This document shows positions 1-1,384 of a stretch of DNA of 1,384 nucleotides, one piece after another. The number at the start of each line of letters is the position of its first letter. Positions within the stretch are counted from its first letter, which is position 1. The stretch lies in the NCBI RefSeq assembly GCF_003334815.1, contig NZ_QOWO01000098.1; one strand, 5' to 3'. This stretch comes from Escherichia coli. Lineage in GTDB: Bacteria > Pseudomonadota > Gammaproteobacteria > Enterobacterales > Enterobacteriaceae. The translations under genes and the position numbers were made by a program. Under the pieces are notes generated by a model. That model was not told the origin of the DNA and made no database searches. It saw only the letters and a list, made by a program, of their open reading frames with translations.

Positions 1-43
1 GTATACAATCAGGAGAATAGGTAAAATCCATAATACTATAGCT

Positions 44-82
44 AAAAAAATATATACGGGGATCAGGCGTCTGTATGCCCGT
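44..82 (-). terminator. Weak candidate intrinsic terminator downstream of the FinO-like CDS
   Basis: On the minus-strand RNA, a short GC-containing stem (ACGGG 82-78 pairing with CCCGU 60-56; 5 bp around a 17-nt loop) is followed by AUAUAUUUUUUU (complement of 55-44). The stem is short, the loop is large, and the site lies about 105 nt past the stop codon, so confidence is low. Confidence 0.2.
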
Positions 83-187
83 TCATGTTTATTCAGGATG
101 AATAAAATCTTCTCCGCTTCTGAATCACACATAACATTCTCTTCCCATTTTTTCTGATACGTAATGTCCACCTGTTATCAGGAGTGT

Positions 188-790
188 TTATTGCCCAGAA
201 ATATTCTCCTGCTGTGCCTGCATCCTGAGCCACTTTTGTTCTAATGTCGCCAGTCTGCGACCGGCACTCTGTGCTTCAGAGTCTGAGACCTGCCCTTTGG
301 GGTGACCATCCAGGCCATAACGTGGGACGCCGGCGACAGCTGTCCGCTGCAGATATACGCGGCGGGATGTGATGCAGGACACTGCACAGAGCCATTCGTC
401 CATGGTCAGTTCTGTCTCCGGGTGTTCTGCCAGAAATGCTGAAATATCATTGTTTATGCCAATTTTCAGGGGAATAAATCCACCACCTTCAGCACGAAGA
501 TGAGGAAACAGGGCCTTTATTTTTTCCACGCACTCGTGAGTATACTCACGGGTCCAGTGGGAGGGACGTGGAAAACGGTGTCTTTTCTTTTTCTTCTTCC
601 TGGCTGGCGCTTCGGGGATATGTGTTTCGACGGCAGATGAATTTATTCCGGCGGGGGCTGATTCTGCCGTCTGTTCAGTAAATACAGGTGCGATAATATC
701 TGTTTTTTCGGATAAGGACGGTGGCGAAAAAGTACGACGTTTTTTCACCACAATGACGGGAGTTTTCCTTTCTTCCTGATTTTTTCCCAT
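188..790 (-). CDS. ProQ/FinO-family RNA-binding protein (FinO-domain RNA chaperone) with a basic N-terminal extension
   Basis: Complete 200-aa ORF with ATG start (complement of 788-790) and TAA stop (complement of 188-190). An in-frame stop lies just upstream (812-814 on the minus strand), so this is the first available start. A GAGG Shine-Dalgarno (complement of 796-799) sits 5 nt upstream of the ATG. The C-terminal region (about residues 86-190, roughly nt 221-535) carries motifs I recall as conserved in ProQ N-terminal domain and FinO: F-P-x-L, PLKIGI, T-S-x-x-x-YL, and G-x-x-R-Y-G-L-DG-x-P-x-G-x-V. The N-terminal ~85 residues are low-complexity and basic, including KKKKKRHR (nt 575-598), resembling the FinO N-terminal region. 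Family assignment is from memory of conserved motifs, not from a search. Confidence 0.85.
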   Translation of the reverse strand: MGKNQEERKTPVIVVKKRRTFSPPSLSEKTDIIAPVFTEQTAESAPAGINSSAVETHIPEAPARKKKKKRHRFPRPSHWTREYTHECVEKIKALFPHLRAEGGGFIPLKIGINNDISAFLAEHPETELTMDEWLCAVSCITSRRVYLQRTAVAGVPRYGLDGHPKGQVSDSEAQSAGRRLATLEQKWLRMQAQQENISGQ

Positions 791-795
791 AAATA

Positions 796-799
796 CCTC
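796..799 (-). promoter_or_regulatory. Shine-Dalgarno / ribosome-binding site (GAGG) for the FinO-like CDS
   Basis: The minus strand reads CGAGGTATTT-ATG; the GAGG core is 5 nt upstream of the start codon at 790. Confidence 0.5.
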
Positions 800-821
800 G
801 GCTGGCTGGTTTTACTCTTTA

Positions 822-849
822 ATAATATCACAATTCATAAATTAGTAAA
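822..849 (-). promoter_or_regulatory. Candidate sigma70-type promoter for the FinO-like gene (minus-strand -10 TATTAT at 822-827, -35-like TTTACT at 844-849)
   Basis: Read on the minus strand, TATTAT matches TATAAT at 5 of 6 and TTTACT matches TTGACA at 4 of 6, with a 16-nt spacer. The predicted start would be around 814-815, giving a short leader that includes the GAGG ribosome-binding site. Weak and unverified. Confidence 0.2.
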
Positions 850-1074
850 TTTCCCATCAGGTGATTTTTCATGGCTAATAAGTCCGTTCTCTGAGTATTT
901 ATACTCGAGGTAGTAACAGTTATGGCGTGACAGTCGAATTGATATTCTACTGAACCCTGACAGAAACATGGTTGATATATTCTCTCACTTTAATGTTGTC
1001 ATGATATAAATAAAAACAATTCATTTGAAAGGATATCAGAAGAAGATATCGGGGCGCACAGTTCATCTCTGCCT

Positions 1075-1102
1075 TTGTTTCATGGGGTGTTCTTTGTATA
1101 TT
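1075..1102 (+). promoter_or_regulatory. Candidate sigma70-type promoter for the plus-strand ORF (-35 TTGTTT 1075-1080, 16-nt spacer, -10 TATATT 1097-1102)
   Basis: The -10 hexamer matches TATAAT at 5 of 6 positions; the -35 is weak (TTG only); spacing is 16 nt. The predicted transcription start would be around 1109-1110, about 35 nt upstream of the ATG. An alternative is an extended -10-like TGnTATAAA at 1002-1010. This is pattern matching only. Confidence 0.25.
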
Positions 1103-1127
1103 TTACTTACTGTTTAAGCATGTACAT

Positions 1128-1133
1128 AAGGAG
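1128..1133 (+). promoter_or_regulatory. Shine-Dalgarno / ribosome-binding site (AAGGAG) for the plus-strand ORF starting at 1144
   Basis: Perfect AAGGAG core, 10 nt upstream of the ATG at 1144. Confidence 0.55.
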
Positions 1134-1143
1134 TGCTTTCATT

Positions 1144-1384
1144 ATGCCAATGATACTTGTAAAGAAGAATCCCCGGGGCAAAGTGATTCGGGAGCTTAGC
1201 AGTGAGGAAGAGACTGCAGTAAAGACGGTCTGTGGACTGAAAAAGCCAGCAACCATGGCACTACATAACCTGGCCAATGATATTCTCCGGGAAATGCGTG
1301 AGTATGATGCATGGTTACAGTGTGACTGTATTCCGGGAGATTCGCCGGCCATGAATTTTGCTGCTCTTAAAAACAATACGGGTA
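1144..1384 (+). CDS. Hypothetical protein, 5' end only (continues beyond the window); function not recognised
   Basis: ATG at 1144 is preceded by AAGGAG (1128-1133) with a 10-nt spacer. The frame stays open for 80 codons to the window edge: MPMILVKKNPRGKVIRELSSEEETAVKTVCGLKKPATMALHNLANDILREMREYDAWLQCDCIPGDSPAMNFAALKNNTG. Composition is balanced and protein-like, unlike the overlapping antisense ORF. It was absent from the supplied ORF track, presumably because it has no stop in the window. An in-frame ATG at 1120 is an alternative start, but the Shine-Dalgarno is positioned for 1144. Confidence 0.55.
   Translation, partial: MPMILVKKNPRGKVIRELSSEEETAVKTVCGLKKPATMALHNLANDILREMREYDAWLQCDCIPGDSPAMNFAALKNNTG

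Follow-up and report, generated by a model that had tools for sequence, protein, structure and literature searches.

The 5′ end of yagA at the edge of an I-complex plasmid sequence from Escherichia coli: a backbone gene with a predicted zinc-binding module and a Bax1-like nuclease domain

The window considered here is the whole stretch of 1,384 nucleotides of Escherichia coli DNA that was analysed. At its left edge lie the first 44 codons of yafA (1..132, minus strand), recognised by their identity to the N-terminus of YafA from plasmid ColIb-P9. A 55-bp gap separates them from fopA (yafB; 188..790, minus strand), which is located directly upstream of yafA and encodes a FinO-domain RNA-binding protein of 200 aa, annotated as “ProQ/FINO family protein” and matching both the FinO and the ProQ models of NCBIfam. 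On the other side of an intergenic spacer (791..1143), a plus-strand frame starts at position 1144 and runs without a stop for 80 residues (MPMILVKK...ALKNNTG; 1144-1383), still open at the end of the window.

This frame represents the beginning of yagA, codons 1-80 plus one base (1144..1384, plus strand). The gene belongs to the backbone of the I-complex conjugative plasmids, where it lies between fopA and the colicin Ia/Ib gene. The frame is 100% identical to the annotated yagA of NZ_CP040264, and its 80 residues are 100% identical to ‘protein YagA’ (WP_087891097). Many plasmids of E. coli and Salmonella contain the whole window at 100% identity, with I-complex backbones (IncI1, IncK2/Z) providing the perfect matches; pO111-CRL115, the one identical plasmid that was typed, proved to be IncK2/Z with MPF_I according to replicon typing. 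The IncI1 reference ColIb-P9, in which the gene order is yafA, fopA, yagA, colicin, is 99.2% identical to the window. The YagA proteins of the IncI1 plasmids ColIb-P9, R64 and pESBL are identical over the 80 residues and are encoded in this same gene order, so that no sequence difference separates them from the window copy, although a Tn21-family insertion has probably cut the latter short after codon 80 (see below).

Plasmid records name the plus-strand ORF “yagA: protein YagA” (448 aa). Copies that have been cut are recorded as a “DUF8534 domain-containing protein” pseudogene, a label that NCBI also gives to the same 80-codon stub. The cluster representative, 98% identical, and about 90 homologues carry a precomputed PF27227 label (Pfam name ‘Endonuc-like_C’). 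For YagA, AFDB returned the SwissProt entry P04481, “Uncharacterized protein in cib 5′ region”, and judging by this name, the ORF that precedes the colicin Ib gene has, in our view, long been catalogued. The gene is therefore an already annotated, already known and ordinary member of the plasmid backbone. A previous reading of these residues, made from the sequence alone (hereafter the sequence-only reading), could not place them in any family; they belong to yagA, to Pfam PF27227 and to what NCBI calls “DUF8534”. The same reading described the function as unrecognised, and this description holds: yagA has never been characterised in the literature, and searches on DUF8534, PF27227 and Endonuc-like_C found no papers.

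The coding status of the frame is well documented. A word-indexed homology search returned 116 clusters and an exhaustive search 530 representative clusters at E≤1e-3. When the 80 codons were compared with six homologues at 40-58% amino-acid identity, divergence at the third codon position amounted to 0.50-0.66 per site, against 0.23-0.34 at position 2, and because position 3 diverges more than position 2 the frame (1144-1383, plus strand) is coding. The proposal of a real plus-strand protein-coding gene was thus confirmed. The opposite strand does contain an 89-aa ORF (1107..1376, minus strand), which could in principle have been the real gene, with the plus-strand frame open by chance. Against this, the plus-strand frame has hundreds of homologues whose divergence is biased to the third position, whereas the corresponding reverse frame is interrupted by stops in five of the six homologues. 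All detected homology lies on the plus strand. The probability that the antisense ORF is the gene, or that the yagA frame is a chance ORF, is in our view negligible, and the ORF is excluded as a gene and classed as a shadow ORF, which settles in favour of the plus strand a doubt that the sequence-only reading had raised.

Translation signals are clearly present upstream of yagA. A Shine-Dalgarno sequence, AAGGAG (1128..1133, plus strand), can be read 10 nt before the ATG at 1144, and at four of five diverged homologous loci AAGGAG or GGGAG is found and the layout SD-ATG-NCN-ATG is kept. The strong ribosome-binding site noticed earlier is therefore not only present but conserved. The description of yagA as divergent from the FinO-like gene across a long AT-rich spacer was likewise accurate: the fopA-yagA spacer (791..1143) measures 353 bp and has 34.6% GC, compared to 47-50% in the two flanking genes. 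No direct or inverted repeats and no operator-like symmetry were found in it. A search for LexA boxes identified a single site with one mismatch, which lies within a coding region and does not exceed chance expectation, and none in the spacer, while Rfam returned for the window just tpke11 at E 0.97, which is chance level. The promoter scan called no site on the plus strand, and its total was not above that of shuffled controls. Below the scan threshold, a candidate yagA promoter may be read as TTGTTT-16 nt-TATATT (1075..1102, plus strand), with TTGTTT at 1075-1080. Some 40 nt before the ATG, the block GTATATTTT (1096-1104) is shared without change by three I-type plasmids with YagA proteins that are just 57-58% identical; this block, which the consensus scan did not call, may represent the yagA -10 element. 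A candidate promoter for fopA is located at 822-849, some 230 bp from the candidate yagA -10.

The right edge of the window deserves attention. At least twelve plasmids that match the window perfectly, among them NZ_CP104118 and pO111-CRL115, have the Tn21-family inverted repeat GGGGTCGTCTCAGAAAACGG starting directly after position 1384, which is the last yagA base before the repeat (1384..1384); the junction was also seen in two of the collected loci (L002, 7384/7385; L009, 5462/5463). In three of these plasmids the inverted repeat itself contains IS4321. The truncated product would consist of 80 YagA residues followed by 19 or 21 junk codons and a stop. On the other hand, 1074 plasmids carry yagA uncut across the position corresponding to 1384, where the intact sequence continues as ...ACTCTTTATCTGTCC. 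Because the end of the window coincides with the Tn21 junction, a Tn21-family transposon has probably interrupted the source copy after codon 80 and left an inactive pseudogene stub, and the window is probably an assembly contig broken at the transposon end. This deduction depends solely on the endpoint of the window, since pEc631_1, with an intact yagA, is also 100% identical to it. The sequence-only reading had regarded closure of the frame within a few codons past the edge, combined with a lack of homologues, as a sign against its own proposal. Closure probably does occur here, but the cause is trivial, since identical plasmids carry a Tn21-family insertion right after codon 80, and homologues are abundant.

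The neighbouring gene product, YafB, has been described as FopA, encoded between yafA and yagA (PMC7491321). In a GradR/RIP-seq study FopA was shown to be an RNA-binding protein whose dominant ligand is Inc, the antisense RNA of repZ, and a common phylogenetic distribution of FopA and Inc/repZ has been published. The named targets are Inc, repZ, STnc1590, mgtM and STnc700, and yagA is not among them. Although FopA is encoded beside yagA in I-complex plasmids, it is an unrelated FinO-domain protein directed at Inc/repZ, and its distribution tracks repA rather than yagA. PLSDB contains 3181 plasmids with a FopA homologue and 1444 with a YagA homologue. Diverged FopA proteins in IncI-gamma/K1, IncI2 and an IncFIA/IncN plasmid had no YagA beside them (three of three sampled), and in the two of these with an annotated repA (IncI-gamma/K1 and IncI2) it lies within 3 kb of fopA.

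It had been suggested that yagA and the FinO-like gene form a co-regulated, divergently transcribed accessory module in which yagA would be the cargo or a regulated target. The two genes are indeed neighbours throughout IncI1/K/Z plasmids, and FopA binds structured RNAs, with a full target list longer than the named top ones. Adjacency also occurs in the diverged plasmid pSA20121591.1 of S. diarizonae (L019), where proteins 42% (FopA) and 58% (YagA) identical to those of the window are encoded directly downstream of repA (6133-6669 and 6995-8347, respectively). In that plasmid, however, the pair is arranged in tandem on one strand, and since the orientation of fopA and yagA differs between the two lineages, no shared control region or divergent promoter is conserved. 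Whether YagA is consistently found next to a FinO-like gene was checked as the sequence-only reading had proposed: in a tblastn search with FopA, a FinO gene adjoined YagA in two of 16 context types, with differing orientations, and none was found in the other 14, which include a related repA-yagA plasmid with a YagA 57% identical to ours. pSA20121591.1 was the sole case of adjacency found outside IncI1/K/Z. Conversely, FopA exceeds YagA in number of plasmids and occurs without it in the three sampled types. Insertions often destroy yagA and leave fopA intact, and the spacer lacks the repeats or operator-like symmetry mentioned above. With orientation, distribution and published targets (Inc/repZ and chromosomal sRNAs) all against it, co-regulation of the two genes is rejected as highly improbable, and neither the module nor the role of yagA as cargo or target of FopA was borne out.

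Some observations concern the remaining surroundings of fopA. The product of yafA resembles a small membrane protein, and the K2/Z-type plasmids that match the window perfectly have a yafA that is likewise shortened, to a stub of 61 aa. A stretch of about 47 bases at positions 3-49 of the window occurs in two copies in ColIb-P9 (4771-4817 and 5526-5572; 87% identity) that flank a yafA-containing segment, which suggests that recombination between short repeats has inserted or removed this segment. In IncI-gamma/K1 plasmids (L024, 2250-3806; L023, 2253-3809), the position upstream of fopA that is held by yagA in IncI1 is occupied by a gene for a 518-aa AAA ATPase matching the PADLOC candidate defence family HEC-04 (E 9e-42) and ATPases of the AriA/PtuA/GajA type. 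The slot flanking fopA looks like a variable position for conflict or cargo genes.

An AlphaFold2 (AF2) model of YagA built on 28 homologues (pLDDT 81.5, pTM 0.79) points to a protein of four parts: (i) an N-terminal alpha/beta domain (residues 1-100) bearing a C60-x-C62...H91-x3-C95 motif; (ii) a disordered basic linker (about 100-155); (iii) a middle region, helical and beta-rich; and (iv) a C-terminal alpha-beta-beta-beta-alpha-beta unit (328-423). In this model the part encoded in the window takes in the first beta-hairpin and two helices, together with the C60-x-C62 half of the zinc motif, while H91 and C95 are encoded beyond the window. The W-L-Q-C-D-C-I-P-G-D segment to which attention had been drawn was found again as residues 57-66 (nt 1312-1341), and its beginning, W57-L-Q-C60-D-C62 (1312..1329, plus strand), is the first half of the C-x-C...H-x3-C zinc-binding motif. 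In an alignment of 70 diverse relatives with 19-58% identity to YagA (alignment A2), C60, C62 and H91 are kept in all 70, C95 in 67 and W57 in 64.

Conservation is equally high in the C-terminal unit, where E330 is kept in 70 of the 70 relatives, D376 in 69, E394 in 68 and K407 in 69; S327 (70/70) and K357 (69/70) in the same domain show comparable values. Foldseek against the PDB gave Bax1 and TnsA as top matches, and in a PDB search with the profile of the alignment Bax1 chains were the sole matches. According to this profile, P375-D376-F377 and E394 of YagA align to P304-D305-F306 and E318 of AfBax1, the alignment strings being “PDF...vviETMGy..eYl.rK” for YagA versus “PDF...VYIEIAGFWTDEYLRKK” for AfBax1. 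The metal-binding site proposed for Bax1 comprises E275, D305 and E318, and the D305A substitution significantly reduced the activity of its nuclease domain (PMC7293015). With a Pfam-A model set that did not include PF27227, DUF790 was the sole match of YagA searched alone (residues 369-415, i-E 0.4), and the DUF790 HMM matched 33 of the 70 relatives at E≤0.1 and seven at E≤1e-3. A phmmer search of YagA against PDB sequences gave nothing meaningful, no match was found in PADLOC or PHROGs, and NCBIfam returned a sub-threshold restriction endonuclease match (11 bits against a cutoff of 800).

Taken against the features that define PD-(D/E)XK enzymes, YagA shows the alpha-beta-beta-beta-alpha-beta core fold and the three acids of catalytic type, namely E330 in helix 1, D376 in strand 2 and E394 in strand 3. 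The lysine of the (D/E)xK signature, expected two residues past the strand-3 acid, is absent, as YagA reads E394-T395-M396 at this position. Variants of this type are known, and the absence is compatible with membership of PD-(D/E)XK. The conserved K407 (69/70) is situated in the following helix, as in Bax1, and its position in the alignment and the model suggests that it stands in for the canonical lysine. These comparisons of sequence and model show that YagA ends in a domain of the PD-(D/E)XK nuclease type; among characterised proteins, the nuclease domain of archaeal Bax1 is the closest to it.

Resemblance to Bax1 nevertheless has clear limits. The similarity extends over about 40-130 residues, the DUF790 match of YagA itself has an i-E of 0.4, and the N-terminal and Cas2-like domains of Bax1 are replaced in YagA by the N-terminal zinc domain. 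Bax1 is a partner of the XPB helicase in archaeal DNA repair, whereas YagA is bacterial and plasmid-borne, and its neighbourhoods contain no consistently adjacent XPB-type helicase; it is therefore not assigned to Bax1/DUF790. To Hjc, VRR-Nuc, Vsr and TnsA no significant sequence similarity of YagA was found. Those nucleases consist of a single domain or carry other embellishments, and they have the canonical ExK lysine that YagA lacks.

A closer likeness in overall architecture is offered by DUF1173 (PF06666). Laganeckas et al. (PMC3045609) described DUF1173 proteins as being of ~400 aa, with an N-terminal CysXCysXnHisX3-5Cys motif and a C-terminal domain that is PD-(D/E)XK-related, lacks an active-site signature and is related to DUF790. 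Both families thus combine an N-terminal CxCxnHx3-5C zinc motif with a C-terminal PD-(D/E)XK-like domain in about 400-450 aa. Full-length structural matches link YagA to proteins named DUF1173 (Foldseek E 1e-23 to 1e-28, TM 0.53-0.70), a name that annotators have also given to some YagA relatives. The PF06666 HMM, however, did not match YagA at E≤10, and among the relatives it matched none of the 70 at E≤1e-3 and four at E≤0.1. While DUF1173 has been reported without a catalytic signature, the YagA family retains E, D, E and K, and we treat it, on the strength of these putative site residues, as a sister of DUF1173 with an apparently intact site. Literature searches on DUF1173 yielded nothing functional.

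The missing ExK lysine, together with the full-length match to proteins named DUF1173 (Foldseek E 1e-23 to 1e-28), a family of the same architecture described without an active-site signature (PMC3045609), leaves room for the view that YagA has the PD-(D/E)XK fold but no catalytic activity and acts as a DNA-binding or scaffolding factor, as has been proposed for DUF1173. We consider this unlikely. E330, D376, E394 and K407 are each present in 68-70 of the 70 relatives at identities down to about 20%, and the YagA residues align to a site in Bax1 that is supported by mutation; catalysis, or at least metal binding, is the likelier reading because such conservation would otherwise be hard to explain. 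An active nuclease is thus, on balance, the more probable nature of YagA as judged from alignment and model.

The activity that we predict for YagA is that of a metal-dependent, probably structure-specific DNA endonuclease. In such an enzyme the zinc module and the basic linker would hold the DNA, E330, D376 and E394 would bind Mg2+, and K407 would be supplied from the next helix. Cleavage at a structure (fork, flap, junction or single-strand/double-strand boundary) would be more likely than cleavage at a sequence. Structure-specific cutting is favoured because structures or lesions are the targets of the nearest relatives (Bax1, VRR-Nuc, Hjc, TnsA and Vsr), and also because no methyltransferase or other partner travels with yagA. 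What suggests this specificity, then, is the kind of relatives that YagA has, together with its gene neighbourhood.

Published and distributional data describe yagA as dispensable. In the TnSeq analysis of pESBL (PMC4288162, Table 2) the ORF at 40146-41492 (plus strand), which corresponds to yagA by its coordinates, received a non-essential probability of 1.00, with 0.00 for maintenance and 0.00 for transfer; fopA scored 0.95 as non-essential in the same experiment. The I-complex TraDIS paper does not mention yagA, nor does the main text of the RNA-seq paper on early conjugation of pESBL. About 19% of the plasmid matches span less than 80% of yagA, and published insertions in or beside the gene comprise Tn21, ISEcp1-blaCTX-M-55, ISEcp1-blaCMY-2 and an ampicillin-resistance cassette.

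Sixteen distinct contexts of YagA homologues were compared, drawn from Enterobacterales, Rhizobium, sphingomonads, Rhodanobacter and Roseomonas, and all of them are plasmids or integrated elements. In about 12 of the 16, a small count that has no background control, the homologue has a rep or par gene no more than 7 kb away. In Pectobacterium a gap of 48 bp separates Rep3 and yagA, which likely form an operon, while the arrangement is RepB-SopA-ParB-yagA in Enterobacter 638 and ParA-ParB-x-x-yagA in Serratia. No conserved small partner ORF was found beside the homologues, since only two closely related par-linked loci share neighbours, and no cognate methyltransferase travelling with YagA was detected in the neighbourhoods. 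From this we regard yagA as a stand-alone accessory gene of plasmids and integrative conjugative elements across Proteobacteria, usually located beside rep or par genes.

Several individual loci can be added to this picture. Homologues adjoining rep or par genes include those of loci L003, L005, L006, L010, L013, L017, L018 and L021. In L003, a partial yagA-like fragment (9724-9912; residues 387-447, 44% identical) follows some 400 bp downstream of the full-length homologue and looks like the remnant of a duplicated or replaced copy. In Providencia rettgeri (L016, 928-7332) a homologue 48% identical to YagA is located in a chromosomal island integrated beside smpB, which also carries an integrase, AlpA, a DUF3987 protein and a DNA methylase. 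Because of this chromosomal location the YagA family is not confined to plasmids.

The role of a predicted nuclease in such a setting could be in conflict with other mobile DNA or in the processing of plasmid DNA intermediates. The former, a plasmid-borne nuclease serving anti-phage or anti-plasmid defence or the exclusion of competing mobile DNA, is a more specific role nested within the explanation given above, and we put it forward tentatively, as possible rather than probable. Its attraction lies in the accessory nature of the gene, dispensable for both maintenance and transfer, and in its company: in IncI1, yagA adjoins colicin Ia/Ib; the equivalent slot of IncI-gamma/K1 holds the AAA ATPase of the AriA/PtuA/GajA type that matches HEC-04 (E 9e-42); and some distant homologues are found near Hachiman, HEPN or RES genes, or near anti-restriction genes of the leading region. 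Yet these defence neighbours are inconsistent, YagA itself has no PADLOC or PHROG match, and the commonest neighbours, rep and par genes, are equally compatible with a role in DNA maintenance.

As a sequence feature yagA is ordinary, being present in more than 1,400 sequenced plasmids. It is, however, carried by epidemiologically major resistance plasmids (IncI1, IncK, IncZ) and blaCTX-M, blaCMY-2 and Tn21 resistance modules have landed there repeatedly. To what was known, the present analysis adds the prediction of a zinc DNA-binding module combined with a Bax1-like nuclease, with E330, D376, E394 and K407 as the residues concerned, and it brings together the published dispensability of the gene and the repeated insertions of resistance elements in or beside it; the idea of a cargo gene controlled by FopA is set aside as unsupported. 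A wider and more speculative proposal, to which we attach a low probability, is that the YagA family (at least 530 clusters) represents unrecognised stand-alone, structure-specific nucleases with which conjugative elements act against other mobile DNA. Such nucleases might, for example, cut intermediates that incoming plasmids or phages form during replication or transfer. If this is true, the frequent destruction of yagA by resistance transposons in IncI plasmids would mean either a cost or a relaxed need for this function in clinical hosts.
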